From a virus (lineage: Duplodnaviria > Heunggongvirae > Uroviricota > Caudoviricetes): a stretch of 64,000 nt of DNA. The stretch is from positions 10,815 to 74,814 of IMG/VR virus record IMGVR_UViG_3300020049_013266; one strand, written 5' to 3'. Shown here piece after piece: positions 9,095 through 61,265 of the stretch. Both the position numbers and the translations under genes were made by a program. The number at the start of each line of letters is the position of its first letter. The stretch's first letter is position 1. Below the pieces are notes generated by a model, which made no database searches, was not told the DNA's origin, and saw only the letters and a program-made list of their open reading frames with translations.

Positions 9095-9181
9095 CGGAAG
9101 ATGTAGGACTCGAACCTACACGCCATTACGACTAACTGTTTTCAAGACAGCATCCCTTAGACCAACTTGGATTAATCTTCC
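9095..9181 (-). tRNA. tRNA-Ser (anticodon UGA), type II
   Basis: Acceptor GGAAGAU/AUCUUCC, anticodon stem GCUGU/ACAGU with loop CUUGAAA, long variable arm, T-arm GUAGG-UUCGAGU-CCUAC; 86 nt. Confidence 0.7.
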
Positions 9182-9186
9182 TTTTG

Positions 9187-9260
9187 TAGAAGCGGTGGGA
9201 TTTGAACCCACAGCGGAACAGATTTTAAGTCTGATGCGTTTACCCTTTCGCCACGCTCCT
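9187..9260 (-). tRNA. tRNA with anticodon UAA (Leu-type anticodon on a short-variable-loop body)
   Basis: Acceptor AGGAGCG/CGCUUCU (one G-U pair), D-stem GCG/CGC, anticodon stem (U)CAGA/UCUG(U) with loop CUUAAAA, 5-6 nt variable loop, T-arm GUGGG-UUCAAAU-CCCAC; 74 nt. Confidence 0.6.
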
Positions 9261-9266
9261 TTTTAG

Positions 9267-9349
9267 TGGGAGTAGATGGGCTCGAACCACCTACCTATGC
9301 CGGTTACCAGATTTACAGTCTGGCGCTTATCCTGTTTAGCATTACTCCC
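9267..9349 (-). tRNA. tRNA-Tyr (anticodon GUA), type II
   Basis: Acceptor GGGAGUA/UACUCCC, D-stem GCU/AGC, anticodon stem CCAGA/UCUGG with loop CUGUAAA, long variable arm, T-arm GGUGG-UUCGAGC-CCAUC; 83 nt. Confidence 0.75.
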
Positions 9350-10320: not shown

Positions 10321-11220
10321 ATGAGTTCAATGAATCCTCAGATTTATTACGAAGATGAAGATAATAACGGAAGTTATGTCTATGTATCGTTAGAAGAAAT
10401 GGTGCTTAATTTCACAGCCAATTACACTGGCAATGGAAAAATATTAAACAAAGTGCCTCGTTCAAGAATAATCTACCAACTAAAGCAAGGAATAAAGAAA
10501 TTCAGCATGAACGCTTTGAGAGAAAAAAAATGCGTAGAATTAGAACTTGGCGATACGTTAGACATTATTCTGCCTCCAGATTTCGTCAACTATACTAGGA
10601 TATCTTATGTGAATCCGGAAACGGGAGAGTTGATGGGTTTGTCAAGAAATAATAATATTGCAATGGGTACTGCTTATTTGCAAGACGATGAAGCCAATAT
10701 ACTGTTCGATGATGATGGATTTATTTTGGAAGGAACAACATTCTTTGAGGAAGTAAATGATCAGGTAAATAAAAGAGAATTCTTAGGGTATTTAGATTTA
10801 GGGTGTATCGGAGCGTATCCTTATCCTTATACAAACGGATACGGAATTATAAGGCAGACTAATTTTTTACTTGACCCATCTCAAAACGCAAATGGATATT
10901 TCAACATAGATACAAGACAAGGTAAGATACATTTTAGCTCTGATAATGCAAGTAGAGTTATAATGCTTGAATACATATCAGACGGATTGGAATATAGTAA
11001 TGAAAGTGATATTAAAGTGAGTAAATTGGCCGAAGAAGCTTTGTATAATTTCGTTAATTACGAATTAATGAAAACTATGTTCGGAGTTCCGATGTATGAA
11101 AAAAATGAAGCTAAAAAAATGTGGTTTGCTGCATATAAAAACGCAAAAATAGCTATGATGGACATTAAGATTGATGACGTCATGTTATTTTTAAATAAAA
11201 AACGCCAATGGATACGATAA
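10321..11220 (+). CDS. hypothetical virion structural protein
   Basis: 299-aa ORF, spaced 3 nt after the previous gene. Confidence 0.55.
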   Translation: MSSMNPQIYYEDEDNNGSYVYVSLEEMVLNFTANYTGNGKILNKVPRSRIIYQLKQGIKKFSMNALREKKCVELELGDTLDIILPPDFVNYTRISYVNPETGELMGLSRNNNIAMGTAYLQDDEANILFDDDGFILEGTTFFEEVNDQVNKREFLGYLDLGCIGAYPYPYTNGYGIIRQTNFLLDPSQNANGYFNIDTRQGKIHFSSDNASRVIMLEYISDGLEYSNESDIKVSKLAEEALYNFVNYELMKTMFGVPMYEKNEAKKMWFAAYKNAKIAMMDIKIDDVMLFLNKKRQWIR

Positions 11221-14300: not shown

Positions 14301-15691
14301 GTCATGAGTTTACTACACACATACTAACAGATGCTTTTGATTGTTTTTGCTTTGGAAATGGAGTCGAAAGCTATAAAATAAGAGATTCTTTTACTGGAAA
14401 ATCTTTTTCTATTGACAGCAACCCTACTGGAATAGATAAAGAAGGTTATAAACGAATGAATAGATTCGCAGATATTACATATTCTGAAATATATAATTCC
14501 AATACCAATACAAATAGATTAAATGAGTTTAATTTATCAAACGCTAATTACAAAGATAACATTGAAAAGTCTTATGGGCCTATTTATGAAATTAAAGGAA
14601 AAGACACTAATTTAGACGTATTCCAAGAAGATAAAGTAAGTATTGTTTATTATGGAAAAGACTTATTGTTTAATGCGGATGGAGTGACAAATTTAACGAG
14701 TATTCCAGAAGTTTTAGGGCAGCAAAACACTTACGCTTCTGAAAACGGAATATCTGTACACCCATCTAGTTATGATGACTACGCTACAAATGATTATCTT
14801 ACAGACGTAAAGAGAGGAGTTGTTTTGAAGAAAAATGAATCTAACGGATTGTATGAGATTTCAGGTCAAAAAATGAAAAGTTATTTCAAAAAGTTGTTCC
14901 GAGATAACGTCATTAATCAAGTTATAGGCAAGTATGATCAATACCATGACGTATATGTATTGAATATCAAATATAACGATACTGAATATGTTACGTGGGT
15001 GTATTCGGATTTCAACAATGGATGGCTAGGAAGAATTACTTTTAATCCAGAAAATATGTGCCGGGTAAACAGTAAATTTTTCTCTTTTAAAAATGGAGAA
15101 ATATATGAACACAATCAGCCAACGGGAAGAAATACATTTTACGGCATCGAATACCCAAGTAAATTTGTTGTTAATTTTTCACAACTTCCAAGCGAACGAA
15201 AAGTATATAAAAACGGAGAAATAGAAGGAACAGATCCTTGGGAACTAGAATTAAAAACAGATTTAGAAGAAGGCTACATAAAGGCGACTGATTTCGTAAA
15301 GCAAGAGGGTGTTTTTAGAGCATACACAAGAACGTCTAACGATGTAGTTGATAATTCAGTGCTATCGACTCAAGGAATAGGAGATTGCGCTATAGTTGGC
15401 TTGGAATTAAGATTTTCGTTTCCGTTAGAGAGCGAAATATCTATTGGAGACAAAATAGTAAACTTGTCAAATCAACTTGTGGGTACAATACAAAACAAAT
15501 CAGAAAAAAGCTTAACTTTGGATGCGGTAGCAAACATCTCTTCTGGAGATTATGTAATGTGTTCAAAATCTAAAAGCTCAGAGTCAATGGGTATAAGAGG
15601 TTATCACATGCAAGTGAGCGGTTCCTTAATGAAAAACACCAAAACTGAAATTTACGCTGTTAATTCAGAAGTAGTCAAAAGTTATACTTAA
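11333..15691 (+). CDS. large virion structural protein (tail/nozzle/baseplate-like), 1452 aa
   Basis: Very long uninterrupted ORF rich in N/S/T/G/Y, typical of tail or adsorption-apparatus proteins; the antisense ORFs inside it are short. Confidence 0.6.
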   Translation: MKLQNTFSLGTVNKDSDSRFVSPNELVDAENFFVTTVDSSDLGVGKNALGNALKTAYNIPGGKTIGVGTNNSIGKIYNLIKGTSFDYVIEYDTETSVSEIILQSTTGGVLNFKEGEMINKVDVFIDSVSRDVIIFWSGDTNPPRCVNINTAKTWAIDGFSNDEISVMKPSPIFAPSINLTTSIDGVENNFIEDKMLCFATRYKYRDGYYSAYSSWSRIAFTPKKFDLDYQTYENNSMLNLSNAVDISFNVGPRDVVQVDLLFRESDNNKVYVIEEFVKQDEGWSDNSIHSFQFSKSKIYTTLPEEQYFRNFDNVPLESVCQTIIGNRIAYANFVEGRDIDEKVDFEVSLMSTEPFSSEVEGAVSDYVSVDNYSNLVDFEEGIEDGGSSPTDQMNYATNTIQMVLGSADRADFIIDVAPEGGYSTIPYNIIVKEGSTVLQQWTSLTGSQSRTYITLTNKNVQIYITSDLGLIYGLKLNYNTSLIGVIGAAISRYDYYSYFQLSFPKNGGYTSDLTGNTVIDTVTTFDMTGYSFLSGNQIRINLELKSSLVGNFEPSVTFFYNISENYADLTDFITNSGFVYQLETVFSLTFKNNFISNEGAFVSMVDFDVSQSGNSLILKTPLIVYSVTEPSSVVENKNEFYLIKDANLQTVEQSAFTSLHSNRDNEVGLIYMDEQGRKTTILNSPLNTIFIPAINSDLVNKLVVTINSNPPSWAKYYKFAIKKPKKGYEIIYGNEVFKDGIYRWIRLVGENKNKIEEGSLLTVKSDYSGPLDVLRKAKVLEIKQQEANFLSGNTYENGDEIIEQPGLYFKIKQGDFDVDITQDTYKSYIGRGKRRYASRSFVTTDPLFGFYDETNTWIPDSVLAGTILSFKISIKAYGSIEFDHELNIEKVAQDNYANIKEWFDAEIADDNSFTSYADDYLNDWEFTTPDGQSFRIKPWRDGTASRDIITTVEFNVNFAGGTLVFETEPIEDLETLFFETPETYVITDGSHEFTTHILTDAFDCFCFGNGVESYKIRDSFTGKSFSIDSNPTGIDKEGYKRMNRFADITYSEIYNSNTNTNRLNEFNLSNANYKDNIEKSYGPIYEIKGKDTNLDVFQEDKVSIVYYGKDLLFNADGVTNLTSIPEVLGQQNTYASENGISVHPSSYDDYATNDYLTDVKRGVVLKKNESNGLYEISGQKMKSYFKKLFRDNVINQVIGKYDQYHDVYVLNIKYNDTEYVTWVYSDFNNGWLGRITFNPENMCRVNSKFFSFKNGEIYEHNQPTGRNTFYGIEYPSKFVVNFSQLPSERKVYKNGEIEGTDPWELELKTDLEEGYIKATDFVKQEGVFRAYTRTSNDVVDNSVLSTQGIGDCAIVGLELRFSFPLESEISIGDKIVNLSNQLVGTIQNKSEKSLTLDAVANISSGDYVMCSKSKSSESMGIRGYHMQVSGSLMKNTKTEIYAVNSEVVKSYT

Positions 15692-18397: not shown

Positions 18398-21300
18398 ATG
18401 GAGCAACCTAAAAAGCCTAAATTCGACCCAACAAAAGCTTATGAAGAAGTAACGTCAGAAAAACCTAAGTTTAATCCTGATTTGCCTTTTGATGAAGTAA
18501 AAAAAAAAGACCCTTCTACATCTATCATTCAAAAGAAAGAGTTGGTTTTGGAACCGAAGACTGGTTCTTCGGGTGGTCGAGATATTGAAATGAAAACTTT
18601 TACGGGGTTGTCTGCGGAAGATTTGAAAACATTCAAATCTTCCGGAACTCCTATGCCCAAAATAAACAAGGAATTAAAAATTTCTTTGGATACGAACAAG
18701 GCTAACCTGAAACGAAAATCTGCTCTTGAAAAAGAACTTAAATCTGTTGTTGTTACTCCTGAAAACCAAGATGAAATATCTGCTAAAACAGATGAACTGT
18801 CGGCTATACAAAAACAGCAACAGGAATTCAAAGAGGCATCTGAGGCAAGGAGAATTGAGAAACAAAATTATAGTAAAATAAGTTCTCTTACCAATAAATT
18901 AGCTACGGGTAGTTCTCAACTTGGAGTAAATTTTGCAGCTATACCGGAACTTGCATATGATGTATTTGCTGCTCCTCAAAATGCCATTGCAGATGTATTC
19001 GATTTACCTAGTTTTAGAACAGATTCAGAAAAATTCAAGAAAACCATAGGTGTAAATAATGTTGTAAAAGATTATTATAAAAATGAAGTATCCCAACTTA
19101 GGGAAGAGGCGCAGAAAACAGATTTAAAATATCAAGGAGGGGTTTACGATTCGTTCGTTAACGGAGATTATCTCGGAGGATTCGATCAATTAACAAATAG
19201 TTTTACAGAATCGCTACCAGCTACAATGTCTATAATGGTTGGTGGAGCATACACTAAAGCACCTCAATTAATGGCGGCATCTTCCATGATGTTTGGAGCC
19301 GAAAAAGCCGAAAAATTAAAAGACGAAGACCCAGAAATGAATAACAATGTTCGTGTTGCAAACGCATTAGCAACAGGATTTATTCAAGGAGCTACCGAGA
19401 CTTTAAGTTCTGGAAGTATTGGCGCGGCAGCAAGAGGATTGGTTGAGAGGGAGGGAGCTAAAAAAGCAACTACAATTTTAAAAGACGGTCTTGTCGATTA
19501 CTACAAAACTGCATTGCAAAAGAATCCAATATTAGCATCGATGTCTGGGGAAGGATTAGAAGAAGCATTTCAAGGAGTTGCCGAAAATGCGGTTGATGTT
19601 GCGACTGGAGTTAAGCCGTCTGATTATAATATATACCAAACTGCAGTAGATGATTTCATTGGAGGGGCTTTTGGTGGAGCTGTTTTTGGAGGTGGGCTAA
19701 AAGGTCTTCAACAAATAACTAATTACCAAGACAAAAACCAGATAAAATCAAATACAAAAAAAGTATTCAATCTTCAAAATGAACTTCAAAATCCAGAATT
19801 GTCTCCGGAATCAAAAATTGAAATAAACAAAACTATTGACTCTCTGGTTAAGACCAATCAACAACTGGTTCAAAAGAATGTTGATCATGTAGAATCTTTG
19901 TCTCCAAAAGTCAAAGAAGAACTTCTTAAGGCTATTGATATTTCTGAATCGACTAAAGATAAAGCAAATCAGATTAAAAGCGACCCAAACACGTCTAAAG
20001 AGACAAAACAAATACTATTAGATAATCTTTCAAAAAAGTATAAAGTCGCGAATGAGCGTAAAACTAAAATTCTTGAAGGTTCTGTATCGGAAGTTGATGT
20101 TTTGCCTTTAAAAGAGCAAGACAAGCTAAAAAGAGAAGCATTAGAAGAGTTGACGGACGAACTTAACCCAGATGGTAAAAAAAACATAACAATCAGTAAT
20201 GAACAAATAACAAAAAGGGCTAATAAGATATACGACAGAACAAAAGATGTTAATTCCTTGACATTTGAAACCGTTGAACCAAAAACAAATACTGGTAGTC
20301 TATTTTTTGAAATAATTGCAAAATCAAAAGACGGGACTGATATAGGATCTATAGGCGTTTTTAAAAAAGGAGAAAATTTAGAGATAAGCGAGTCGGAACT
20401 TTACAATGACTCCTACAAAGGGAAGGGAGTTGGTTACGAAATGTATAAATCTATGGTAGCCGAGGCTAATAAAAAAGGCATAGAAGTTTTTAGTAGTTCT
20501 ACGGAATTCTCTAAAGACGCTCAAAAAGTATGGGAAAGATTAGAAAAAGAAGGACTAGCTATTAAAGTAGGAGATTTAAAAGGTGATCCTGATTATATAT
20601 CAAGAGAAGAGTTTCCACAATTTAAAACAATACTAAAAAATGAAATTAAATCAGAAACAACCTCTACTGGAACAACCGAAACCGAATCACAAACCGAAGT
20701 ACAAGAACCAACAAATGAAACAAAAGAGAAGGAAGTAGGAGAAAAAGGAGCTACAGTTGTATTAGAAGTAAAACCTGCTGAAAAAGTTGAAATCATAAAT
20801 GAAAGCCTACCGAAAACAGATACTGCTTCTGATGGAGATAATGGACTTGGAGTTAAGCCAGTGGATGAAGTACGAACTCCCAAGCAAGAAGATATTGTCG
20901 AAGAATCAGTTTCAGAAACCATTGACACTAAACCAAGTGAAAGAAAAGTTGAAGTAAAAAAAGAATTCAAAAGAGAGCCAGGAAAAAGAACTTTACTTAA
21001 TAGGCTTATTGAAGGAGGTAATGGAAAAGAAATTACTGAAAGCTTAAATGAATTACGAAACGACTACGATGTTAGAAATCAAAAAGAAGCAGATTCTTTT
21101 GCTAATAAGTTTATTGAAACAGTCGGACTTCCAGAAGCGCTTAGGGCGGCTAAAGATGGTTTAATAGAAAATAATGATATTAAGTTTTTAGTTTATTCAG
21201 AAGGATTGAATCAGTTAAAAAATGAAATTGATAGTGAATCCAATCTCGATGAAAGAGAATCTTTGATAAAGGAGTTTCAATCGCTTTCTGATTCATTTGA

Positions 21301-24300
21301 TAATGACGTTAGGAACTCTGGGCAAGGAATATCTATTTTAAATTACATCTACAATAAAGATCAGTCATTAAAATACAATCTATCAAAGTTGATTAGTGAT
21401 TATAAGGCAAATGATATTAATGGAGAAATTCCGGCAGAAGTAAAAGCTGAATTCGAGAAATTAACCAATCAGTTAAAGGATGTTGAGAAAAGAATAAAAG
21501 AAGCCGAAAAACGTGCTATAAAAGCCGAAGAAGAGCTTGCTATTAAAAATATTCAAGAAGATATTTCCAGGAAAAAAGAAATTTCCTCCAAAAACAAATC
21601 TGGCCTTACGGAAAAAGAACAAGTTCGTAAAAAAGAACTTAGAAACAAGTTTTTTGGAAGATTGAATGATGTTACAAGTATTGCTACAATGTTAGCTGAT
21701 AGTGAGTTTAGAGAATATTTGGGATTGACATTTAAGGCCGCCAAGGGAGATTTATCAAATTTTTCCAAACAAATTTTGAAAGAAATAGGAGATGGAGCTA
21801 AAAAACACATGCCTAATTTATTCAAAGAAGCGGAAGCTATATTTAATGAAGTTTCTAAAAAGGAACAACCAAAGGTAACTATAGACGAAAATGGGAAAAT
21901 AAAAATTCCAAATCAATTGTTCAGAGATTATGTAGAGGCCGGAGAAACAGACATTGATGTTATTTCTCAAAAAATAAAAGAAGATATATCAGAAGAATAT
22001 CCGGATGTTGATGTACGCGATATTCGTGATGCATTAACCGGTTATGGAAAACAAATAAATCCAAATAAGGATGAAATAACCGGAAAAATAAATCGTTTAA
22101 AAGAGTACGGGAGACTTCTATCTGCTTATGAAGATGTCTTGGGAGGAGATATGCCTAAGAAAACTGGAATCAAACGAGAAAAACCAGAGCAAAAGTCGAG
22201 AGAATTAAGAAGAGAGGTGAATCGTTTAGCAAAAGAATTAGGTCTTGAATCCGTCAACTTAGAAGAGCAATGGGCTACAGCTATTGATAAGATAAAATCA
22301 GGACTTAGAAACCAAATAGAAGATTTAGATAAGCAAATTTCAAAAGGAGAAAAAAGAAAAGTTGAAAGAATAGAAACCAGACTTGATTCTGAGGCAGAAG
22401 CATTGAAGTCTATTCGAGATGAAAAGAAAAAAATACTTGATGAATTAGTCGGCAAGCCTGAATTAACAGAAGAGCAAAGAATATCCAGAGCCGAAAACAC
22501 TTTGGAAAAATCTATTGCTAAGTTACAAGAAGAAATCGATACGCAAAATATTGCTTACAAAGAAAAACCAAGCCCGCTGAATTCTGCTAAACTTGAAAAT
22601 TTACGAACTCAAAAGAAAGGCTTAGTTGCAGCAAAAGAACTTTTGCGTGAAGAAGCAGGGCTTGTGGAAGAAAAACGCTTAAAAACGGCAAAAACGAGGG
22701 TTAAAAAGCAAATATCTGATTTAGAAGAAAGGATAGCTAACAAAGATTTTGCTAAAAAAGAAGTAAAACCTATTCTGGCAGATGATGAATTAAATAATCT
22801 GCGCGCAGAAAAAGAAGAAATTTATGAGCATTTTGAAAAACTTAAATATATCCAAGAATTAAAAAACAGAACTAAAGCCAGAAAGTTTTTGGACGCAGCT
22901 CTTGAATCACTAGGATTACTTCGTGCTGTAAAAGCTTCTTTGGATTTAGGTCTTATAGGTATTCAGCTAAGAGGCTTTACCTACTCAGAATTATTAAGAA
23001 GTCCGAAAGAATTAGGTAAAAAGTTTTTGAAGTTATTTGGGTCGATCGGTTCTCAAAAGAAAAGTGAAAAAGCTATGGCTCAATTAATTGGGCATCCTTT
23101 GTATGGATTAGCAAAAAAACTGGATATTGGGATCACACAGCCGGACCTTAGAAATGAAGTTCGTGAAGAGATGGCTTCTGGCAATTTGTTGAGGTTTATT
23201 TGGAACTCACCTATGATAGCTACGAAACTATTAGGAGGAAAAGAATTTACAGATGCAAAAAGAAAATCTATTGGAGACACTATGATTGATATCTTTAAAA
23301 AGCAATACAACAAAGTAGCCAAGGATAAATTAGAAATCACTGAAAAAGATAAGATTTCGCGTTCTCAACAATGGAAAAATATAAATGCATTTGAAGCCAT
23401 CGAAAGAGGTCTTTCAGCTTACGGGAACCAGTTGAGATTCGAAGAGTTTGTTCGTGGAGTAGATAAGCTAAAAGCGGAAGGAAAAGATCCTGTAAATAAT
23501 CCCGAAGATTATGAATCTTTAGCAAGTTATATTAGAACTTTTTCAGGTAGAGCAAAACCAAAAGCGTTAGTTACAAATCAAAAACTATTAAATGTTTTTT
23601 TCTTTTCTTTTAAGAACGCTGTGTCTGTTTTTCAACAATTAAATCCATGGTATATGGTTTATGAGCTTAATAAGGCTAATTTTAAAAATGGGAAATTTAA
23701 ACAAACAACTGCAGGTAAAATGGCTATGGCAACTATGTTTAAATCTGTGGCTTCAACAACAGCTACTATTTTGTTTATCATGGCAGCATATAATGCTTTC
23801 AAAGATGATGACGATGAAGAAATGACAATAGAAACCGATCCAAACAGTTCTGATTTCGGAAAAATACGTAAAGGAAATTTTAGATATGATCCTTGGGGTG
23901 GTTACGTTCCTTTGATTACGCTATATTTCAGACTATTTACTGAGGAAGTGAAAAAGGCTGACGGAACCAAATATAAATTTGGTGAAGACAGGTTTGGTAT
24001 AGAAAGCAGAGGAGATGCAGCATCTCGTTTTCTATTCAATAAAGAATCTCCAGGATTTCAAGCATTTCATCATTACATGACCTCAAAAGAAGAAGTTGAT
24101 GAAACTACTGGAGAAACAGTGAGAGTGAATAAGTTTGGCGAAAAACTTTCGGAGGATGAAGCTTTCTCATTGTATCCAATATTTATTGGTTCTATTAAAA
24201 AAAATATGGAAGAAGATCCGGATGCCGTGAAAGACTTTTTGACTTATTGGTCAGTACTTGGATTAGGTAACGTTCAGAATTATGAATCGAAATCCAAATC

Positions 24301-24370
24301 AGGAGGTAAAAAAGGAAAAGGTTCTGGTCCGAATCCTCCTTCGCCACCAAAACCTCCAACTCCAAATTAA
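18398..24370 (+). CDS. giant virion protein (tape-measure or internal ejection protein-like), 1990 aa, with embedded GNAT-like motif
   Basis: 6-kb ORF with long coiled-coil K/E regions, Gly-rich hydrophobic stretches (GGAFGGAVFGGGLKG), a C-terminal transmembrane-like segment and a PPSPPKPP tail; residues around 640-720 carry a YKGKGVGYEMYKSMVAEA motif-A-like signature. Confidence 0.6.
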   Translation: MEQPKKPKFDPTKAYEEVTSEKPKFNPDLPFDEVKKKDPSTSIIQKKELVLEPKTGSSGGRDIEMKTFTGLSAEDLKTFKSSGTPMPKINKELKISLDTNKANLKRKSALEKELKSVVVTPENQDEISAKTDELSAIQKQQQEFKEASEARRIEKQNYSKISSLTNKLATGSSQLGVNFAAIPELAYDVFAAPQNAIADVFDLPSFRTDSEKFKKTIGVNNVVKDYYKNEVSQLREEAQKTDLKYQGGVYDSFVNGDYLGGFDQLTNSFTESLPATMSIMVGGAYTKAPQLMAASSMMFGAEKAEKLKDEDPEMNNNVRVANALATGFIQGATETLSSGSIGAAARGLVEREGAKKATTILKDGLVDYYKTALQKNPILASMSGEGLEEAFQGVAENAVDVATGVKPSDYNIYQTAVDDFIGGAFGGAVFGGGLKGLQQITNYQDKNQIKSNTKKVFNLQNELQNPELSPESKIEINKTIDSLVKTNQQLVQKNVDHVESLSPKVKEELLKAIDISESTKDKANQIKSDPNTSKETKQILLDNLSKKYKVANERKTKILEGSVSEVDVLPLKEQDKLKREALEELTDELNPDGKKNITISNEQITKRANKIYDRTKDVNSLTFETVEPKTNTGSLFFEIIAKSKDGTDIGSIGVFKKGENLEISESELYNDSYKGKGVGYEMYKSMVAEANKKGIEVFSSSTEFSKDAQKVWERLEKEGLAIKVGDLKGDPDYISREEFPQFKTILKNEIKSETTSTGTTETESQTEVQEPTNETKEKEVGEKGATVVLEVKPAEKVEIINESLPKTDTASDGDNGLGVKPVDEVRTPKQEDIVEESVSETIDTKPSERKVEVKKEFKREPGKRTLLNRLIEGGNGKEITESLNELRNDYDVRNQKEADSFANKFIETVGLPEALRAAKDGLIENNDIKFLVYSEGLNQLKNEIDSESNLDERESLIKEFQSLSDSFDNDVRNSGQGISILNYIYNKDQSLKYNLSKLISDYKANDINGEIPAEVKAEFEKLTNQLKDVEKRIKEAEKRAIKAEEELAIKNIQEDISRKKEISSKNKSGLTEKEQVRKKELRNKFFGRLNDVTSIATMLADSEFREYLGLTFKAAKGDLSNFSKQILKEIGDGAKKHMPNLFKEAEAIFNEVSKKEQPKVTIDENGKIKIPNQLFRDYVEAGETDIDVISQKIKEDISEEYPDVDVRDIRDALTGYGKQINPNKDEITGKINRLKEYGRLLSAYEDVLGGDMPKKTGIKREKPEQKSRELRREVNRLAKELGLESVNLEEQWATAIDKIKSGLRNQIEDLDKQISKGEKRKVERIETRLDSEAEALKSIRDEKKKILDELVGKPELTEEQRISRAENTLEKSIAKLQEEIDTQNIAYKEKPSPLNSAKLENLRTQKKGLVAAKELLREEAGLVEEKRLKTAKTRVKKQISDLEERIANKDFAKKEVKPILADDELNNLRAEKEEIYEHFEKLKYIQELKNRTKARKFLDAALESLGLLRAVKASLDLGLIGIQLRGFTYSELLRSPKELGKKFLKLFGSIGSQKKSEKAMAQLIGHPLYGLAKKLDIGITQPDLRNEVREEMASGNLLRFIWNSPMIATKLLGGKEFTDAKRKSIGDTMIDIFKKQYNKVAKDKLEITEKDKISRSQQWKNINAFEAIERGLSAYGNQLRFEEFVRGVDKLKAEGKDPVNNPEDYESLASYIRTFSGRAKPKALVTNQKLLNVFFFSFKNAVSVFQQLNPWYMVYELNKANFKNGKFKQTTAGKMAMATMFKSVASTTATILFIMAAYNAFKDDDDEEMTIETDPNSSDFGKIRKGNFRYDPWGGYVPLITLYFRLFTEEVKKADGTKYKFGEDRFGIESRGDAASRFLFNKESPGFQAFHHYMTSKEEVDETTGETVRVNKFGEKLSEDEAFSLYPIFIGSIKKNMEEDPDAVKDFLTYWSVLGLGNVQNYESKSKSGGKKGKGSGPNPPSPPKPPTPN

Positions 24371-30119: not shown

Positions 30120-30821
30120 TTATTGCACAACTTCTTCGGTAACGAGAACTTTTCCCGCCCATTGTTGCGCCATAGCTTTGGCAATATTTGGGAAAGTTTT
30201 ACTGCTTTCTATTTGGCTTATATTCTTGAACTGATATTTCTGATCTCTTTTTTTTCCACCAGTATTGCTCGGTAAATAAGGCACGTAGTTTTTTTTAATA
30301 TCAGTTGGTTTCAATTCAGGTAGGTTTTTAAGCCATAATAACGTTCTTTTTGAAAATTCGTGTCCAAATTGATAAGGTTGTATAGTTTGCGTTTCTTTTG
30401 GCAGTCCTACAACTTTTAATGGTAGTGGGTTTTCTAATGAAATTTTATCAATTGGTGCGTTTTTTAATTTCAAGAAGAAATCTTTTGCATCCATCGCTTT
30501 TTTTAATCTTTCAGGACACAAATTACCCGCAGTTGGGTACATCCATCTTGCCCCTGCTCGGCTCATAAATGTGCAAGGCGGGAAAAATATCCCCATATCA
30601 TATTTACCGCTATAAGCTTCTTTCAACACATCGCCTTGAATATGCCATTCGGGGTGTCCGCCTGAACACGGCATTAAATCACAACTATACGCTTCGTGTC
30701 CTAATTTTCTTAATTCAATTGTAACTGCCTGTGATTCCTCGCAACCGACCAGAACAACAAGCGGTAACACGTGATTGTAGCTATTGCCAGATTGGTCTTG
30801 AATTTGATTATTGTTTTGCAT
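30120..30821 (-). CDS. TRD-less C5-cytosine methyltransferase-like protein (paralog 1)
   Basis: Motif I-like LVGCEESQAV, motif II GHEAYSCDL, catalytic motif IV FFPPCTFMSRAG (PCQ.FS.AG-type), motif VI ENPLPL, motif VIII-like QFGHEFSKRTLLWL, motif X-like FPNIAKAMAQQW; only 233 aa, so there is no room for a target-recognition domain. Confidence 0.6.
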   Translation of the reverse strand: MQNNNQIQDQSGNSYNHVLPLVVLVGCEESQAVTIELRKLGHEAYSCDLMPCSGGHPEWHIQGDVLKEAYSGKYDMGIFFPPCTFMSRAGARWMYPTAGNLCPERLKKAMDAKDFFLKLKNAPIDKISLENPLPLKVVGLPKETQTIQPYQFGHEFSKRTLLWLKNLPELKPTDIKKNYVPYLPSNTGGKKRDQKYQFKNISQIESSKTFPNIAKAMAQQWAGKVLVTEEVVQ

Positions 30822-40302: not shown

Positions 40303-40593
40303 TTAATTAAATTTTGGTTTGTAAGCGGTGATTACTGGTTCTCTGTTGTATGTGTACTGCTTTGTTCCGCAAATAGCACATTCTCTGCTCCATCGAGCTT
40401 TTTCGACATCCCTGTATCCGGCAAAACTCCAGTGAGGATCTGATCCCGCTCCATCCTGAACACTTCCGTATCCTTCTTTGACAGTTTCAGGATCATAAAT
40501 AGCTGCTTTGAATGAGTGGGTACAATTTTTTATTTTGTTTTTCTCCGACTCAATCTGTCTTTGTAATTCGTTTATTTTATCATTAGGATTCAT
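40303..40593 (-). CDS. hypothetical protein
   Basis: 96-aa ORF downstream of the integrase gene; 11-nt overlap. Confidence 0.4.
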   Translation of the reverse strand: MNPNDKINELQRQIESEKNKIKNCTHSFKAAIYDPETVKEGYGSVQDGAGSDPHWSFAGYRDVEKARWSRECAICGTKQYTYNREPVITAYKPKFN

Positions 40594-41836
40594 TACTGTT
40601 CCATTTGTTATGCATTATTTCAGCATATTCTTGTTTGCTTTTTTTGTTATAATGATTTAACATATTGCTGTTTTTGCTCCATCCCATAATGGCTGACAAA
40701 GTTTCGTTGTCAACTTTTCCATAGAAGTTGGACGCGAATGATTTGCGACAAACGTGCGAGGAAATAAGTTGCCACTTCCTGTAATAGCCAAAAACCTTAC
40801 GCTTACGTTTTTTATCAAACAACTTCCCGTACATCTGCTTATCTATTTCACAGATTTGGCAAATTGTTTTAATGTGAATATTGAAATCGGTTTTACTTAT
40901 TTTTGGTGGCAGATTACCGAAGTTTGATTCAATTACTTTTTTTAATACCGGATGAATGGGAACCACGATTCTTTTGCCTGTTTTCTGCGTTTTAATTTTG
41001 AATACACCATCTGAAATATTAGAAGTGTCTAATTTAGAGAAATCCCCAAATCTCATTCCTGAAAACACGCCAACCAAGAAGTTTTGCTTTGTAATATCCA
41101 ATTCGTAATTATCTGAAAAATCGTGATCAATAATGCTTTGTATTTCGGCTTCATTCAAATAAACTCCCTCAGCATCTTCGTCTTTATCGAAATAGATTCT
41201 TTGTTTAAACGAATTACTTACTTCGATATTGTGTTCGAGTGCGCGATTAAGGAAAAATCGGAACCGGCCAACGTGTCTTTCAATTGTGGAAACCTGGTAA
41301 AACTCAGTTTCTAAATAATCCGCAAATGATTTCAGGTCCGAAACGCGAATATTTCTCAACTGCAGTCGCTCTCCGATTACTGATTCATATTCCGAAACAA
41401 TGGAGACGAATTTTTTGTACTGGTTATGCAACGGCAATCCCATTTTTTTCTTACTTGATACATTCCAATCGTCAGCATGATTTTCCAGCCACCACAGCGC
41501 AAAATCTACTAAATATATAGTATGTGCCGGATTAATCATTTTTAACTCTTCTTTAGGGCGATTAAAGCTGTTTTTTATGGCAGATGCAACCCAGAATTTA
41601 TCAACTATAATTCCCCTGCTAAAATCGTTATTGTACTGTTTTAGAAGATCTGTTTTTAATTGTTGCAGCGAAATGTTCAATCCCGGATTATTAATAACGC
41701 TCTGATTATCTAAATCCCATTCAGCATCTTTCAACATGATATTTGTTGAACATGAAATATCCAATTTAGAATATCTCATTCTAACAAGGAGTTTCTTAAC
41801 CTCCTTTCTTCCTTGTAATGAAAATGTAATGTTCAT
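40583..41836 (-). CDS. int: tyrosine-type site-specific integrase
   Basis: 417 aa with a catalytic-domain signature: GMRFGD (Arg I), HVCRKSFASN (H..R box II), MGWSKNSNMLNHY (H/W...Y catalytic Tyr); N-terminal arm/SAM-like region. Confidence 0.7.
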   Translation of the reverse strand: MNITFSLQGRKEVKKLLVRMRYSKLDISCSTNIMLKDAEWDLDNQSVINNPGLNISLQQLKTDLLKQYNNDFSRGIIVDKFWVASAIKNSFNRPKEELKMINPAHTIYLVDFALWWLENHADDWNVSSKKKMGLPLHNQYKKFVSIVSEYESVIGERLQLRNIRVSDLKSFADYLETEFYQVSTIERHVGRFRFFLNRALEHNIEVSNSFKQRIYFDKDEDAEGVYLNEAEIQSIIDHDFSDNYELDITKQNFLVGVFSGMRFGDFSKLDTSNISDGVFKIKTQKTGKRIVVPIHPVLKKVIESNFGNLPPKISKTDFNIHIKTICQICEIDKQMYGKLFDKKRKRKVFGYYRKWQLISSHVCRKSFASNFYGKVDNETLSAIMGWSKNSNMLNHYNKKSKQEYAEIMHNKWNSNES

Positions 41837-48264: not shown

Positions 48265-48942
48265 CTATTTTATTCTTGAAACGTTGTAAATATCAAACAT
48301 TTTTCCACCTGCAACACTTTGCCATTTTAAACCAATAGCCTTAAATATTGAAGGATAACAACTAACACCAACTCCACCTTCGAAATAAGGTAAAACGCCA
48401 TACCCTGAACCATACCCAAAAATATCTCTATTTGATTTGTTTTTGTTTGCAGATTTATAAAGATTTGCTTTTAATACATCACTTTGGTTTAAAGCCTCAG
48501 CTATTGCAGTGCTTAATTTATCATAACCACAACCAGAAACATAACGACTTTTAAAATACTCACAATCGGTATTGCCTTTAGCATCTTTAAAAGAAACCCA
48601 TACTTCAGCAGTAGGATTTAATCCCCACATTTTAGACTTTGCCCACTCAACCGTTATTTTGATTTCAGTTATTTTAAATAACTTATTTTCAACACTTTTA
48701 ACTTCTTTTATCTTTTCAGAAAGTCTCAAGGCACTTTTTTCTTTTATTTTAGAAACAAGAACTTTTTTAAATTTACTAAAAGTCATTTCTTCAATTCCTT
48801 TAATCTCTTTTTTAGAAAATAAACCTCTATAGTAAGCATAATCCAAAAATGATTTTACATCTTTTTTTTCTTCATTAAAAGACAAGCTTTTTTTAAGTTC
48901 TACTTTTGATTCTCTATTTAATTTTGCTATAAGTGTTTTCAT
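48265..48942 (-). CDS. hypothetical protein (225 aa)
   Basis: Longest ORF in the small-gene region; Gly-rich C-terminal half. Confidence 0.5.
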   Translation of the reverse strand: MKTLIAKLNRESKVELKKSLSFNEEKKDVKSFLDYAYYRGLFSKKEIKGIEEMTFSKFKKVLVSKIKEKSALRLSEKIKEVKSVENKLFKITEIKITVEWAKSKMWGLNPTAEVWVSFKDAKGNTDCEYFKSRYVSGCGYDKLSTAIAEALNQSDVLKANLYKSANKNKSNRDIFGYGSGYGVLPYFEGGVGVSCYPSIFKAIGLKWQSVAGGKMFDIYNVSRIK

Positions 48943-50560: not shown

Positions 50561-51953
50561 AAAAGAGTATTATATAAATAAAGTCTCTAATAAATAGAGT
50601 AAATATAATCTATGTATTAAGCGTGTACCTTTGTTCGCACCCTGCAATCACTGTCTAAATAAATAGTAGCTTTATATGATACTTGTAACACCGCTTTTCA
50701 ATATGTCAAATAACTTGTAATGATAAACATGTAAGAGTTAAATACTGTTATTGTCTCTCTAACACATGGCAATATTACGTCATTAATTTGTTACCTGCAA
50801 CAAATTATATAATTATTTTTAACATTTATTCGATGTTAAACGTTTGTTGTCGGCTACGAAATACAAAACCTCAGCAAATACAAGGGTTTGAAGCAAATCA
50901 TTAAAAAGGCCTAAAACGACAAATAAACAATAGCAAAGTATCACATAACACAAAATAGGTTTATAATTATCCTATAAGGCCACAATTAAAACAATCCTCA
51001 CGCATAGAATAACACCAAACAAAAACATCCTGAAACACCACAATAAAACATCTACATAACAACAAAGCAAATACACTTAATATAAGACCATAAAACCAAA
51101 ACCACGTACAAAACCATCATATAGGAAAAACAAGCCAAATACCGCTCACAAAAACACCTTAAACACATCTTATTAATATACTCTATATACAGAGAGACAA
51201 ACACACGCTATTTTATAACGATTCCATAACCTAAAGTTATAGTAACCATAATCACAGGCTATAGGACAGCTTACAGTCTCTACCAACGTAGTAATAGCAA
51301 GGGTTTACGCCAAATGAGAATCGTATTTAGTTGCTGATTCTGTACATTGGTTTACAAAGTCGGAGTAATCGAGAACGCTAAACGCATAAAGCATTGTATT
51401 ATAAGGGTTTAATATTGGTTTATGCTAATCATACTAAGATTAACTATTTAATGAATAGGATAGGTTTAAGCCTGATTTGTAGATTGGTTTGTGATGTGAA
51501 CCCAACCACAGCAAGGCAAGCCGATTTGAAACGAATTAGAAAAGCAAAACCAAAAATAGACCCCGCCCCTGTTTTAAATTACGTTTTCGGATACGCAAAC
51601 CAGGGCGTCAGATGAGAGGTAGCCTCAACCCTCTACCTTACTCTACAGTTTACAAAGCCCCGTAGATACTCAGGTTGGGCGAAGATTGGCTGCGGTCGCT
51701 TGTAGGTCCTACGTAGCGTATCGCTGTCGATTATGGTTCCGGATGACGCTTAGTACGCCTGAGGGAGTTTTGATAGCTTAAACAGCTTTGTTTTGATCCG
51801 GCTGTTGAAGAATGCTGATACGCTGCAAAGCCCAGTAAATAGGCTTTGGTCAATACGTAAACAGTGAGGAGACAAAAAAAGGTACTCCGTGATAGTGTTT
51901 TATTGAATAATATATTGTACGTTTGTCAAATATTAATCTAATTAAATCGAAAA
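50561..51953. other. 1.4-kb noncoding regulatory hub / possible origin region
   Basis: No credible ORF. Contains the operator-like motif GGCAATATTACGTCA (50768-50782) and the palindrome AATTTGTT-N6-AACAAATT (50785-50806). It also holds the element TAAACGTTTGTTGTCG in reverse orientation (50837-50852). An A+C-rich, G/T-poor tract runs about 50990-51175, and a GC-rich (about 50%) structured segment about 51590-51880. A TAcgTTTG -7 box lies at 51918-51925, ahead of the plus-strand block. Confidence 0.6.
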
Positions 51954-52439
51954 ATGGGTAAAAAGGTGATTCTGCATTTATGCGCTGATCTGGGAAGCGA
52001 TAGTTTGTTTTATCAATTATCAGACGATTACGAAGTAATAATGATTGGTGAGGAGATTGGAGTTGAGAACTATAATCCTCCGGCAAACGTTCACGGGATT
52101 ATTGCCAATCCGGTTTGTACTGAGTTATCTACTGCTAATGGATTTCATAAAGAAAATGATTTAAAGAAAGGGATGTTTCTGGTTGATCACTGTTTCAGGA
52201 TTATAGAAGTTGCAAAACCTGTTTGGTGGGCTATGGAAAATCCTGCTAATGGCAGATTGAAGGAATTGATCTATACACGTCCCGGGAGGCCTAAACCGGC
52301 TCTGGCTTTTCTTCATAAAAGTGCTGTGAATTTGATACCGGAATTTCAATGGGCGAAGGACATGATAAAATGCGATGCTGATATTCGTTCAATGTGTTCT
52401 CAGGGTTTTGCAAAAGCTTTTTTTGAATCTAATGAATAG
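51954..52439 (+). CDS. divergent C5-methyltransferase-like protein (paralog 2, possibly degenerate)
   Basis: 161 aa; IANPVCTELSTANG (PC motif IV-like), ENPANG (motif VI-like), C-terminal GFAKAFF (motif X-like); the motif I Gly-loop is degenerate (HLCADLGS). Confidence 0.45.
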   Translation: MGKKVILHLCADLGSDSLFYQLSDDYEVIMIGEEIGVENYNPPANVHGIIANPVCTELSTANGFHKENDLKKGMFLVDHCFRIIEVAKPVWWAMENPANGRLKELIYTRPGRPKPALAFLHKSAVNLIPEFQWAKDMIKCDADIRSMCSQGFAKAFFESNE

Positions 52440-52685
52440 CATCCCTATAGTAGGTTTGCAGATATAAACTTAAATAATCAACAAAAATGAAAACAGAAGA
52501 ACAACTACAAAACGACCAGCACTATTTTGATTTAGGAAAACGGTATCAAAAAAACAAGGATAAGAACAGAGTCAATTTTTCACATTGCTTATTGTTTTTC
52601 CTTCTTGGCGGGTCGTTGGCGATATGTTTGAGAAATGCAGGATTAATCTAACACGCACTGGATGGCGTTTATTAAATAAAAAAAT

Positions 52686-52919
52686 ATGAAAGCACAAGAA
52701 GCAAGACAAATAGCGGAAGAAACAAAGTCTGCAGGAGATAGCGTTGCTATTAAAGAAATACAAGAGTATATTAAAGTTGAAGCCATAAAAGGAAATCTTT
52801 CGATTAATTGTTACATCCCTATAAATAATGAGATTAAAATTCATTTTGAAAATTTAGGATATACTGTTCATTTAGTTAATAGTGGACCAAACGAACAATG
52901 CTATAAAATTAGCTGGTAA
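52686..52919 (+). CDS. hypothetical protein
   Basis: 77-aa ORF between the two MTase-like genes. Confidence 0.4.
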   Translation: MKAQEARQIAEETKSAGDSVAIKEIQEYIKVEAIKGNLSINCYIPINNEIKIHFENLGYTVHLVNSGPNEQCYKISW

Positions 52920-52934
52920 TATTAAATAAAAGCT

Positions 52935-53585
52935 ATGGAAAAACTAATATTAATTGGTTGCGAGGAAAGCGGAACCGTTCGTGATGCTTTTTCTAAAATG
53001 GGACACGAAGCTGCAAGTTTGGATTTATTGCCGACTCTTTCTCCAGGAACACACATTCAAGAAGATATTATCGAATATTTGGAATCTATGCCGGACAATC
53101 ATTTCGATTTAATTGGCCTTCATCCAGAGTGTACGAAATTGTGTGTTTCCGGAAATCATGTTTATGCTGCCGGAAAGCCAAAACATCAAATGAGGCTCGA
53201 TCAGGTAAAATGGGTTGAGAAACTCTGGGATTTAATGAAGCGAAAAGGAAAAAGCGGTTATTTGGAAAATCCGGTTGGTGTTCTCCCAAGCCTTTCGAAT
53301 TTACCGAAACCTCAATATATTCAGCCTTTCGAATTTGGCGAGGATGCAAGCAAGAAAACAGCACTTTTTCTGCATAATTTGCCAAAACTCGTCTCTTCAA
53401 ATAGATTTCAGGGGCGAATTGTTGAATTCCCGAAAGGAAGCGGAAAAATGGTCGAGCGCTGGAGTAACCAAACAGATTCCGGACAAAATAAATTAGGTCC
53501 ATCAGAAGACCGATGGAAAGTCCGCTCGAAGACCTATGATGGAATTGCAAATGCTTTTGCTGATCAGTGGCTAAACAATAATTAA
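52935..53585 (+). CDS. TRD-less C5-cytosine methyltransferase-like protein (paralog 3)
   Basis: 216 aa, collinear with the 30120..30821 protein: LIGCEESGTV (I), GHEAASLDL (II), GLHPECTKLCVSG (IV), LENPVGVL (VI), FEFGEDASKKTALFL (VIII-like), YDGIANAFADQW (X-like). Confidence 0.6.
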   Translation: MEKLILIGCEESGTVRDAFSKMGHEAASLDLLPTLSPGTHIQEDIIEYLESMPDNHFDLIGLHPECTKLCVSGNHVYAAGKPKHQMRLDQVKWVEKLWDLMKRKGKSGYLENPVGVLPSLSNLPKPQYIQPFEFGEDASKKTALFLHNLPKLVSSNRFQGRIVEFPKGSGKMVERWSNQTDSGQNKLGPSEDRWKVRSKTYDGIANAFADQWLNNN

Positions 53586-54471: not shown

Positions 54472-54557
54472 TTAAGTGTTGGCTGAGTGGTTGAAAGCAA
54501 CGGGCGACCATACCCGTGGGAGGTAATTACCCCGAAGGTTCGAATCCTTCACACTTA
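54472..54557 (+). tRNA. tRNA-like gene (type II, Ser-like body) with non-canonical anticodon loop CGACCAU
   Basis: Acceptor UAAGUGU/ACACUUA, D-arm GCU-GAGUGGUUGAA-AGC (Ser-like), anticodon stem ACGGG/CCCGU with a loop lacking U33, long variable arm, T-arm GAAGG-UUCGAAU-CCUUC; no encoded CCA. Confidence 0.45.
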
Positions 54558-54737
54558 TCTTAGCAAGGTATAAACATTAAGGAAAATTCGTCACAGGTTT
54601 ATATTAAGTTGCAGACGGACCTACATGCTACAGGTTAAAAAGGCTTACTCATAAAGTCTAGCAAGCACAAACTAACGAGGAAAGCCGGATGCGATAACAT
54701 CAATTCCGGTTTAATTTAACCAAAAACCAAAATAACC

Positions 54738-58894: not shown

Positions 58895-59194
58895 CTAAAA
58901 TACTAAAACGATGTCTGGGTAAAAAACCAGTATGTATGGATTTCCATCTTGTGTGAATGGAGTTGTTTTGTATTTGTCAAACACAACTTCTGCTCCCTCG
59001 GTTAATACGTAACTCCCATCATCATATCTTGGGGTTCCTTGCCCAACGGAAACTACACGACCTCTTTTCTGTTTTTCGTTAGCATCAACTATTCCAGTGA
59101 TATCTATTCCTCCTGCAGTTTTGTTTTCATTGAAAATCTCCTCCACAACTACAATCATGTTTAATGCCTGTCCTTTGAATTTATTTGGTGTCAT
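58895..59194 (-). CDS. groES: co-chaperonin GroES (cpn10)-like
   Basis: 99 aa; ...EEIFNENKTAGGIDITG...RGRVVSVGQG...VVFDKY...ILVF... follows the GroES pattern (mobile loop, AGGI, VG.G, roof hairpin). Confidence 0.65.
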   Translation of the reverse strand: MTPNKFKGQALNMIVVVEEIFNENKTAGGIDITGIVDANEKQKRGRVVSVGQGTPRYDDGSYVLTEGAEVVFDKYKTTPFTQDGNPYILVFYPDIVLVF

Positions 59195-60743
59195 GTGCGA
59201 ATCTTTTTAAAGTGATAACGTTATCAGTTCTTAATAAATTATTTGAAGCAGAAGCAGATGTAATTAAAGCTGTCTTAATACCTTTTGCGGTATCGATTAT
59301 TCCTGCTTCAAACATATCTACATTTTCGTATTTCTTTACGTCATATCCAATAGGGTATTTAGGATATTTTTCTCCTGTAGATTTTACGCCAGCATTTTCC
59401 ATTATTTTCATAAACGGAGCTTTTATGGACCAAGCTGTAACATCATCAATAAGAGTATTTTCGTTTTCAAAAATACTTAGTAATGCAATTCCTCCTCCAG
59501 CAACAACTCCACCGTCCTTAGAAGATCTTACAGCGCAAATAGCGTCATCAATACGTGCTACTTTTTCTTCCACTTCACTAGGGGTAATTCCTCCTACGAA
59601 TACAGTAGAAATTCCTCCAGAAATTTTAGAAATTCTTTCACGGATATAATTCTTTTCTGATTCGTTTGTCTGTAGTTTTATTTGAGCGGCCAAGTCTAAA
59701 ATTTTGCCTTCAATTTTTTCTTTGTCAATATTTTTGTCGGCAGTAATTACTGTATCTTTTTTTCCAATTTCAATACGCTCACATGATCCAAGATAAACCG
59801 GCTCCTTTCCATCATAATTTGTTCTTGAAATACCTTCCAAAACTTCACACCCAAGAATTAAAGCCAAATCTTTCATCGTTTCTCTTCCTTTTTTACCTTG
59901 ATAAGGAGGGCGAATAATGCAGAATGGATAATTGTGCTTGATTCTGTTTTCCAAAATCATATTGGAAATATCATGGGTCATATTTGAAATAATAACAAGA
60001 GGTCTTCCCTGACCGGCAGAATAATCCAGAAACGGAATAACTTCATTTGCGGTTTGGAAATTTATTGATGAGCAAAGAACCAATGGATTATCAAAAACAA
60101 CTGACTGAGTTTCGTTTACATTGATGAATCCTTCGTGTAGGTAGCCGGAATCAATCGGATTTCCTTCAATATGCTCCACATACGTTTCATCTGTAAAACT
60201 TCTTTTGTGTGATACAATTCCATGTTCTCCGGCTTTAATGAAGGCTTCTTGTACAATTTTTGCAATTTCTTCATCTCCGTGAGCAGATGTTTTTGCAATG
60301 TCAAACATTAATTCATCTGTAACCGGAATAGCTATGGAGTCAATGTATTCTAAAACTTTTAAAACCGATTCGTCAATTTTGTTTTTTATTTCGATAGAAG
60401 AAGTGCCTTTTTTTAATTCTTCAAGAGAGTTTTTGAAGAAAGCTTGTGTAAGCACGCACACCAAGGTGGTGTTGTCTCCTACGAGTTCAAATTGCTTTTT
60501 CGTGGCCTCTTTCAATATTTCACAGGCTATATGTTCCATGGCATCTTCGAAATAAAGCTGTTCCAAACTATCAAAACCATCTGCGGTTATATTAGGAAGT
60601 CCTCCGGCTGTCTCAAACAAAACATTAGAACCTCGATATCCCATAGTACTTCCAATGATGTCGCAACTCTTGTTAAGACCGCTTAATAATTTCTCCTTTG
60701 CCTCATCTCCAGAGACAACTTCTCTTAAAATAGTATTACTCAT
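59181..60743 (-). CDS. groEL: chaperonin GroEL (cpn60)-like
   Basis: 520 aa. N-terminal region collinear with GroEL (GYRGSNVLFE..GGLPNITADGFDSLEQLYFED..EHIACEILKE, and GDNTTLVCVLTQA corresponding to GDGTTTATVLAQA). Equatorial C-terminal region GIIDTAKGIKTAL matches GILDPTKVTRSAL. No GGM tail. Confidence 0.75.
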   Translation of the reverse strand: MSNTILREVVSGDEAKEKLLSGLNKSCDIIGSTMGYRGSNVLFETAGGLPNITADGFDSLEQLYFEDAMEHIACEILKEATKKQFELVGDNTTLVCVLTQAFFKNSLEELKKGTSSIEIKNKIDESVLKVLEYIDSIAIPVTDELMFDIAKTSAHGDEEIAKIVQEAFIKAGEHGIVSHKRSFTDETYVEHIEGNPIDSGYLHEGFINVNETQSVVFDNPLVLCSSINFQTANEVIPFLDYSAGQGRPLVIISNMTHDISNMILENRIKHNYPFCIIRPPYQGKKGRETMKDLALILGCEVLEGISRTNYDGKEPVYLGSCERIEIGKKDTVITADKNIDKEKIEGKILDLAAQIKLQTNESEKNYIRERISKISGGISTVFVGGITPSEVEEKVARIDDAICAVRSSKDGGVVAGGGIALLSIFENENTLIDDVTAWSIKAPFMKIMENAGVKSTGEKYPKYPIGYDVKKYENVDMFEAGIIDTAKGIKTALITSASASNNLLRTDNVITLKRFAHDTK

Positions 60744-60761: not shown

Positions 60762-61265
60762 TTATATGTGATCCCATACTTGATTTAATTTTATTCTGCT
60801 AATGTGAGCGCAACTAACATTGAATATTTTAGACAAAGCTACTCCAGTTAATACACTAGTTCTTATTTCTAACACATCTTTTTCTGTAAGTTTTGAGAAC
60901 CCATTTTTTTCGCCTCTCAATGCAGAATTTAATCCGTTTACCCATGCATGATCCACGTTTTCTTTAGTCGTACTCCATTCTAAATTCCAATCATTATTGT
61001 TGGTTTTATCCCCGTCCTTGTGATTTACTTCGGGTTTGTTTTCAGGATTTGGAATAAATGCCATCGCAACTAATCGATGAACTTGGAAATGCTTTCTTTT
61101 TAATCCATATAAAGTCACTCTAAAATATCCTTTGGTTGTTGTTGACAATGTTAGATTTTTAATTTTTTTTACTTTGGTGGATCCGTTGAATTTTAAATTT
61201 CTAACATTTCCAGAATTACTAACCTGATAATTCTCATAATCAATAATGTTTGCCCATTTTTCCAT
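60762..61265 (-). CDS. HNH homing endonuclease (paralog of 4369..5040)
   Basis: VHRLVAMAFIPNPENKPEVNHKDGDKTNN, the classic HNH_3 motif; N-terminal NUMOD4-like YENYQVSNSGNVRN; C-terminal HTH-like region. Confidence 0.75.
   Translation of the reverse strand: MEKWANIIDYENYQVSNSGNVRNLKFNGSTKVKKIKNLTLSTTTKGYFRVTLYGLKRKHFQVHRLVAMAFIPNPENKPEVNHKDGDKTNNNDWNLEWSTTKENVDHAWVNGLNSALRGEKNGFSKLTEKDVLEIRTSVLTGVALSKIFNVSCAHISRIKLNQVWDHI

Follow-up and report, generated by a model that had tools for sequence, protein, structure and literature searches.

Compact Dcm-like cytosine-C5 methyltransferase genes and a shortened relative in a tailed phage genome

We analyzed a 64,000-nt stretch of DNA from a virus of the Caudoviricetes (IMG/VR record IMGVR_UViG_3300020049_013266, positions 10,815 to 74,814; hereafter the window), which carries three genes resembling cytosine-C5 methyltransferases (C5-MTases). 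Two of these genes lie close to each other on the plus strand: gene A (52935..53585; 216 amino acids, aa) and gene B (51954..52439; 161 aa). The third, gene C (30120..30821), is located on the minus strand in the replication module. A first-pass annotation of the window had described A and B, at their correct coordinates, as two adjacent paralogs of a minimal C5-MTase without a target recognition domain (TRD), and the strings that it quoted (LIGCEESG, LHPECTKLCVSG, NPVCTELSTANG and an ENP tripeptide in both proteins) are indeed present, far beyond chance expectation. A six-frame scan of the window with profile hidden Markov models (HMMs) returned A, B and C as its only matches.

Gene A, a compact Dcm-like C5-MTase, presents the ordered series of motifs that had been described for both proteins: a CEESG variant of motif I (residues 9-13), the acidic residues D30 and D44, an HPEC loop with the putative catalytic Cys66, ENP at residues 111-113, QPFEFG..SKKT at residues 130-142, a variable segment that we call a mini-TRD (residues ~149-192) and the C-terminal sequence RSKTYDGIANAFADQW. 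The series is incomplete in B, where the motif VIII-like segment has been lost in a 45-residue deletion. Against PHROGs, A matched phrog_757 ('DNA methyltransferase') over its full length (residues 1-214; E 2.2e-47). Its predicted structure has the C5-MTase fold, as the first-pass annotation had anticipated, with a Rossmann-like core and the C-terminal helix of motifs IX/X packed back; only ~110-130 residues of the model could be aligned with generic Rossmann methyltransferases. Searches of PDB sequences with the single sequence or with small profiles returned nothing for A. An A profile (A3) gave a weak alignment to M.HhaI (sequence verified against the PDB) with the motifs in register, in which Cys66 falls on the nucleophile Cys81 and Ser72-Gly73 on Ser87-Gly88. 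The Pro-Cys of motif IV and the ENV-type Glu of motif VI are both found, in register with C81 of M.HhaI and with the PC and ENV motifs of M.HaeIII.

The conservation of the A family was determined across 135 mutually divergent representatives, drawn from an exhaustive profile search that yielded 6,208 clusters at 50% identity (1,178 of them at E <= 1e-30). D30, H40, C66, E111, P131, K140 and T142 are invariant in this set and E10 (98%), S28, N112 (99%), P113, G135, R197 and G203 are conserved in at least 97% of the representatives, followed by S12 (94%) and D44 (91%). Since C66 and E111 are invariant, the alignment indicates that the presumed Cys nucleophile and ENV-type Glu are under strict constraint. 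Conservation is lowest, and gaps are concentrated, at residues 149-188. These fall within the mini-TRD (53379..53510, plus strand), which separates motif VIII from the C-terminal motifs, carries the subfamily-specific motif ERWSNQTDSGQNKLGPS and is modeled with a beta-hairpin (residues 161-164 and 172-175).

The TRD of canonical type II C5-MTases spans about 80-110 aa. No separate TRD was found between motifs VIII and IX in proteins of this type, which are 200-235 aa long and possess a variable insert of ~40-45 aa with one beta-hairpin. The proposed absence of a TRD therefore needs to be softened: the TRD is no more than rudimentary, but a variable segment of 40-45 aa does separate motif VIII from motifs IX/X. 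The PF00145 enzymes M.HhaI and M.HaeIII, in comparison, are 320-330 aa long and present an FxGxG motif I and a QxRxR motif VIII. The catalytic domain of DNMT3A and DNMT3B (11-12% identity) is also longer (~285 aa) and has the canonical FxGxG motif I. DNMT3 forms dimers or tetramers with regulatory domains.

These compact proteins are not an isolated case. We found 4,952 homologs of A in a database clustered at 90%, nearly all of 200-230 aa, and a few of them carry the NCBI name "DNA cytosine methyltransferase". In the exhaustive search, nearly all of the 6,208 clusters span the full profile at ~195-260 aa, so that the compact size represents the norm of the family and not a truncation. The family gene, usually annotated "DNA methyltransferase", is present in cultured phages of many hosts, among them phages of Flavobacterium, Vibrio, Cellulophaga, Pseudomonas (PA11), Ruegeria, Prochlorococcus (P-SSP7 gp12) and Arthrobacter and some Microviridae. 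BFVD contains many more viral "cytosine methyltransferases" of 200-250 aa, and the family is already annotated in PHROGs, in GenBank phage records and in NCBI metagenome-assembled genomes (MAGs). These results do not support the novelty of such enzymes: A, B and C belong to a large, annotated and partly characterised phage family. Our literature search on 'TRD-less' or 'smallest' phage C5-MTases returned nothing specific, and Murphy 2014 concerns adenine MTases.

Gene C, the third compact Dcm-like C5-MTase, is a 233-aa open reading frame (ORF) whose conserved part begins near residue 20, and its homologs are ~202-214 aa long. Its motifs are CEESQ, FPPC (Cys82), ENP at residues 129-131, QPYQFGHEFSKRT, a mini-TRD with YLPSNTGGKKR, and SKTFPNIAKAMAQQW; the segment matching QPFEFG..SKKT of A reads QPYQFG..SKRT. 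C is a full-length member of phrog_757 (residues 19-225; E 1.3e-46) and shares 31% identity with A (E 7e-22). The C subfamily counts at least 8,000 homologs, and the insert motif YLPSNTGGKKR is conserved and differs from the insert motif of A. Three diverged copies of the family in one phage are uncommon.

A member of this family has been studied experimentally. The 711-bp dcm gene of phage K42, whose genome is 95% identical to that of the BASEL phage KarlJaspers, was identified as the trigger of retron Ec86 (preprint 10.1101/2023.08.16.553469). Expression of K42 dcm raised 5-methylcytosine (5mC) on multicopy single-stranded DNA, as determined by liquid chromatography-mass spectrometry, and a C82A/E128A/K175A/K176A mutant gave no such rise (10.1101/2023.08.16.553469). 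In KarlJaspers (MZ501090), the gene bas06_0055 is annotated "Dcm-like C5 cytosine methyltransferase" (711 bp, 236 aa) and is near-identical to the K42 gene. Besides matching phrog_757 (E 6.2e-86), its protein could be aligned to the A profile across 186 columns (96.6%; E 6.5e-10) and, between motif IV and the C-terminus, to the B profile (E 1.3e-5). Residues C82, E128 and K175/K176 of K42 align with C66, E111 and K140/K141 of A; they correspond to C82, E129 and K157/R158 in C, and B possesses C55 and E95 and is devoid of the KKT segment. The dependence of 5mC formation on equivalent residues has thus been shown for another member of the family. Like A and C, the KarlJaspers/K42 Dcm is a compact single-domain protein of PHROG 757, encoded by a stand-alone gene of Drexlerviridae coliphages, and it shares with A the acid-x-S-G loop (FDGSG), the PPC/HPxC cysteine, ENP and KKT. 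It differs in having 19 extra residues ahead of the KKT segment and an insert of a different kind behind this segment, and in its hosts (Enterobacteria, as opposed to a Bacteroidota-type phage). Its membership in PHROG 757 indicates that the family is known, large and normally ~200-250 aa long. This kinship offers the strongest support for A and C as real DNA m5C methyltransferases. The view of a compact C5-MTase-like enzyme with Pro-Cys and ENP motifs is supported by the fold, by family membership and by a 5mC-making homolog of the same PHROG.

Gene B derives by deletion from another subfamily of this superfamily, in which it has thousands of homologs of ~205 aa. It keeps CADLGSDS, NPVC (Cys55), ENP at residues 95-97 and the C-terminal IRSMCSQGFAKAFF, and is devoid of the motif VIII-like YQPWEYGSPWTKKTALWG block. 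B matched phrog_757 only partially (residues 45-103; E 3.1e-11), and the full-length B homolog P0127 matched it over residues 43-205 (E 1e-27). Protein and DNA alignments reveal a clean in-frame deletion of 45 codons (135 nt) after ..GRLKEL, and HMM positions 106-148 were absent from B in the six-frame scan. DNA alignment with three relatives encoding full-length proteins (L002, L003 and L004) placed the junction AAGGAATTGATC at 52260..52271 on the plus strand (codons K103-E104-L105-I106). In these relatives, GA(G/A)TTGAT occurs as an 8-nt direct repeat on either side of the block that B has lost (encoding ..KELI.. and ..NELI..), which is the signature of a slippage or microhomology deletion. 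B is short because of this 135-nt deletion between two short direct repeats. The earlier explanation, a degenerate S-adenosylmethionine (SAM) loop, did not hold: CADLGSDS is the invariant loop of B's own subfamily.

The segment missing from B is kept by 82 of 82 viral homologs and the 161-aa form represents a singleton cluster. The deleted block aligns to strands 127-129 and 142-147 of the A model plus the KKT residues, and the predicted structure of B is disordered at the deletion junction. Because the deletion removes the motif VIII segment common to all 82 viral homologs, B is probably inactive. In line with this, phage C5-MTs in which motifs VIII-X are missing or disrupted had weak activity or none in E. 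coli (PMC8256090). The B profile also gave a marginal match to M.HaeIII in a search of PDB sequences, with the motifs in register. Compared with A, the B subfamily may be devoid of either strand beta3 or strand beta1: according to the HMMER alignment to M.HaeIII, its N-terminus could equal motifs II-III, while the sheet topology argues for the loss of the edge strand.

The description of A and B as two adjacent paralogs was not supported. We detected no significant similarity between A and B by BLASTP, and their family profiles match over motifs IV-VIII (hhalign 92%; E 7.7e-7). Since only profiles connect them, A and B are distant relatives within one superfamily and not recent paralogs; they represent diverged subfamilies that mostly occur alone. 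Of 80 B-type viral loci, 2 have an A/C-type gene within 10 kb and 2 have two B-type genes; at none of the 80 A-type loci does a second copy lie within 10 kb. These subfamilies usually occur alone and B is no obligate partner. The same counts (an A/C-type gene near 2 of 80 B-type loci, a second copy at 0 of 80 A-type loci) do not support the earlier suggestion that B is a non-catalytic partner, and B as a subunit of A was rejected on this basis.

We consider it probable that A and C, as members of PHROG 757, are active DNA cytosine-C5 methyltransferases that depend on SAM and stand alone, and that B is what remains of a third such enzyme after its inactivation. To judge from their homology with M.HhaI/DNMT3 and with the K42 enzyme, the cysteine of the (P/H)P-x-C loop (Cys66 in A, Cys82 in C) would attack C6 of a flipped-out cytosine and the Glu of ENP (E111 in A, E129 in C) would protonate N3. 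The methyl donor would be SAM, its adenosine bound by conserved acidic residues that follow strands beta2 and beta3 (D30 and D44 in A), and the Lys and Thr of SKKT (K140 and T142 in A) may touch the target base or the backbone. Contact with DNA would be made by the subfamily-specific insert of 40-45 aa in place of a full TRD. The genes are located in early and replication blocks. They would probably serve to methylate phage DNA after replication and thereby to block host restriction enzymes, and subfamilies with different inserts would widen this protection. B has lost 45 residues (including the motif VIII strand and KKT) through a deletion between two 8-nt repeats and is most likely non-functional.

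Several observations weigh against this interpretation. A, B and C present no relevant Pfam match and no NCBIfam match, and they remained unmatched to PF00145 (gathering threshold of 22 bits) even at permissive E-values. The profile check against PF00145 proposed in the first-pass annotation was thus negative for the three window proteins and positive for a member of the B subfamily (P0211; 34.1 bits, covering motifs IV-VI only), one of the weak links that place the motifs in register with canonical enzymes; the A-subfamily member P0075 scored 11 bits. In addition, the glycine loop of the A family is replaced by a conserved C-E-x-S-G, and the canonical FxGxG of motif I is found in none of these proteins (CEESG in A, CEESQ in C, CADLGS in B and FDGSG in KarlJaspers). 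We therefore only infer SAM binding, because motif I of A, B and C departs from the canonical form. We also know of no counterpart of the invariant His40 in canonical C5-MTases. The identity of K42 Dcm to A and C is distant, it is absent among the tblastn matches listed for A and C, and its insert region differs from both. The K42 work itself is a preprint that used a dcm+ host and assumed CCWGG specificity from E. coli Dcm rather than measuring it (10.1101/2023.08.16.553469), and the BASEL study saw no simple link of such methyltransferase genes to restriction resistance. Finally, B retains an open frame and strong conservation in the residues that are left, such that a residual function is possible.

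This last point also bears on the alternative that B is a functional non-catalytic protein, acting as a regulator, as a partner of A/C or as a decoy that binds DNA or SAM. The ORF of B is intact and in frame, its 116 retained residues share ~75-90% identity with homologs and show no other lesion, and the gene precedes A by 0.5 kb on the plus strand. We nevertheless regard this alternative as unlikely: the 161-aa form is confined to a singleton cluster, with the segment missing in 0 of 82 viral homologs, and the slippage signature at the 8-nt repeats suggests that the form arose recently by accident and was not selected. Moreover, the deleted block comprises two strands and the KKT of the A model, the B model is disordered at the junction, and the A and B subfamilies seldom co-occur.

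It is likewise improbable that A and C use the C5-MTase core otherwise, whether by transferring another group, by acting on single-stranded DNA (ssDNA), RNA or nucleotides, or by performing the first step of a hypermodification. The acid-x-S-G loop is also present in the KarlJaspers protein (FDGSG), whose K42 counterpart makes 5mC. CmoX (8yf3; PMC12783734) is a phage DNA cytosine C5-carboxymethyltransferase that requires carboxy-SAM (Cx-SAM) from a co-encoded CmoA, as well as an Arg at the position of N304 in HhaI (PMC12783734). Our reading of the C-terminal motif places Ile204 of A and Phe152 of B at this position, which makes a CmoX-like, carboxymethyl reading unlikely. The TET-associated C5-MTs of clades III-VI resemble B in keeping the catalytic Cys while motifs VIII-X are missing or disrupted, but they adjoin phage TET genes (PMC8256090). 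We observed no TET/JBP, CmoA, glycosyltransferase or ligase among ~40 larger or neighbouring ORFs of the window compared with PHROGs, a set that includes a minority of the small ORFs. Beside A, B or C, no TET/JBP, CmoA, glycosyltransferase or restriction endonuclease was seen. As these ORFs include no TET gene, we rejected the reading of a TET-coupled hypermodification cassette.

Another possibility is that the 135-nt deletion in B represents an assembly artefact or a minority variant, the real phage possessing a full-length and active B. The window is derived from a metagenome contig (P0121 comes from a single 74.8-kb JGI contig) and the deletion ends are short repeats, but an 8-nt repeat is far too short for an assembly collapse and the junction is a clean one that preserves the frame, which makes this very unlikely. 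Equally remote is a scenario in which the inserts, which differ between the three subfamilies and are strongly conserved within each, recognise only 1-3 bases or ssDNA, leading to dense joint methylation of the phage genome, with B possibly a catalytically dead decoy that binds DNA or SAM and acts against, for instance, retron Ec86, a sensor of phage Dcm activity.

For the gene neighbourhood, Pfam-annotated context was taken from the relatives L001 and L002. The closest relative, L001, is a 72-kb Bacteroidota MAG contig with an A ortholog 87% identical and conserved downstream synteny; its slot matching B of the window is occupied by a C-like gene instead (L001:4760-5440). In L002, a full-length B is paired with a different small C5-MTase of 213 aa (L002:5154-5795), which presents canonical YAGIGG, RPCQ and ENV motifs and passes PF00145. 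To judge from L001 and L002, the stretch preceding A resembles an accessory slot of variable content, and the enzymes act independently. L001 also encodes an anti-defence gene with an Acb2/Tad1 hairpin (L001:13989-14267) that is absent from the window. The neighbours of A, B and C in the window are small hypothetical ORFs, and promoter and terminator scans around these genes returned background levels. Upstream of B, at the strand switch, ~1.3 kb (50600-51950) contain short ORFs only, with a few weak direct and inverted repeats and promoter-like sites at background frequency; a regulatory function or a role as an origin is conceivable. On the other side, some 0.9 kb past the end of A, ARAGORN reported a 'tRNA-???' with a four-base anticodon (acca; 54473-54559, plus strand).

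As a whole, the window resembles the genome of a temperate tailed phage of the Bacteroidota type. It encodes portal and virion proteins, a sliding clamp, DnaC/DnaD-like loaders and an integrase (40583..41836, minus strand). A GroEL gene (phrog_5725, E 7e-98; 59181-60743, minus strand) and the adjoining GroES-like gene (58898-59194, minus strand) are conserved in L001. Two ORFs for HNH endonucleases of phrog_59, probably both homing-type, were identified on the minus strand, one among the structural genes (4369-5040) and one beside GroEL (60762-61265). The plus strand carries a 1,452-aa ORF for a virion structural protein (phrog_14478; 11333-15691) and a 1,990-aa ORF with no PHROG match (18398-24370). 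Five clustered tRNA genes (Leu-tag, Ser-gct, Ser-tga, Leu-taa and Tyr-gta) are located at 8915-9349 on the minus strand; at the gathering score, Rfam confirmed only three tRNAs and the odd 'tRNA-???' call was unconfirmed. We also detected a full-length Pistol ribozyme (RF02679; 48204-48266, minus strand) that scored 62.8 bits (E 4.6e-9; gathering score, 34.5), directly 3' of the stop codon of a 225-aa ORF (48265..48942, minus strand) without PHROG match. Over the whole window, four short palindromes are depleted (observed/expected: GATC 0.53, CTAG 0.42, GGCC 0.57 and CGCG 0.50), whereas CCGG shows enrichment (1.30) and GCGC no bias. This bias may separate host restriction sites to be avoided from sites covered by methylation; it is a weak hint only and identifies no specificity.

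The window adds no new principle to what is known of this family, and its new points are local: three diverged copies in one phage and one remnant of a microhomology deletion. We found only one functional test of a family member, and the sequence specificity of that enzyme was assumed. A systematic survey of specificity would be useful for a family of 6,208 clusters spanning phages of many hosts. For annotation, three phage genes can now be named as compact Dcm-like DNA cytosine-C5 methyltransferases, one of them a deletion remnant. The presence of 5mC would be expected on the DNA of this phage, which bears on its sensitivity to restriction, its sequencing and its cloning.
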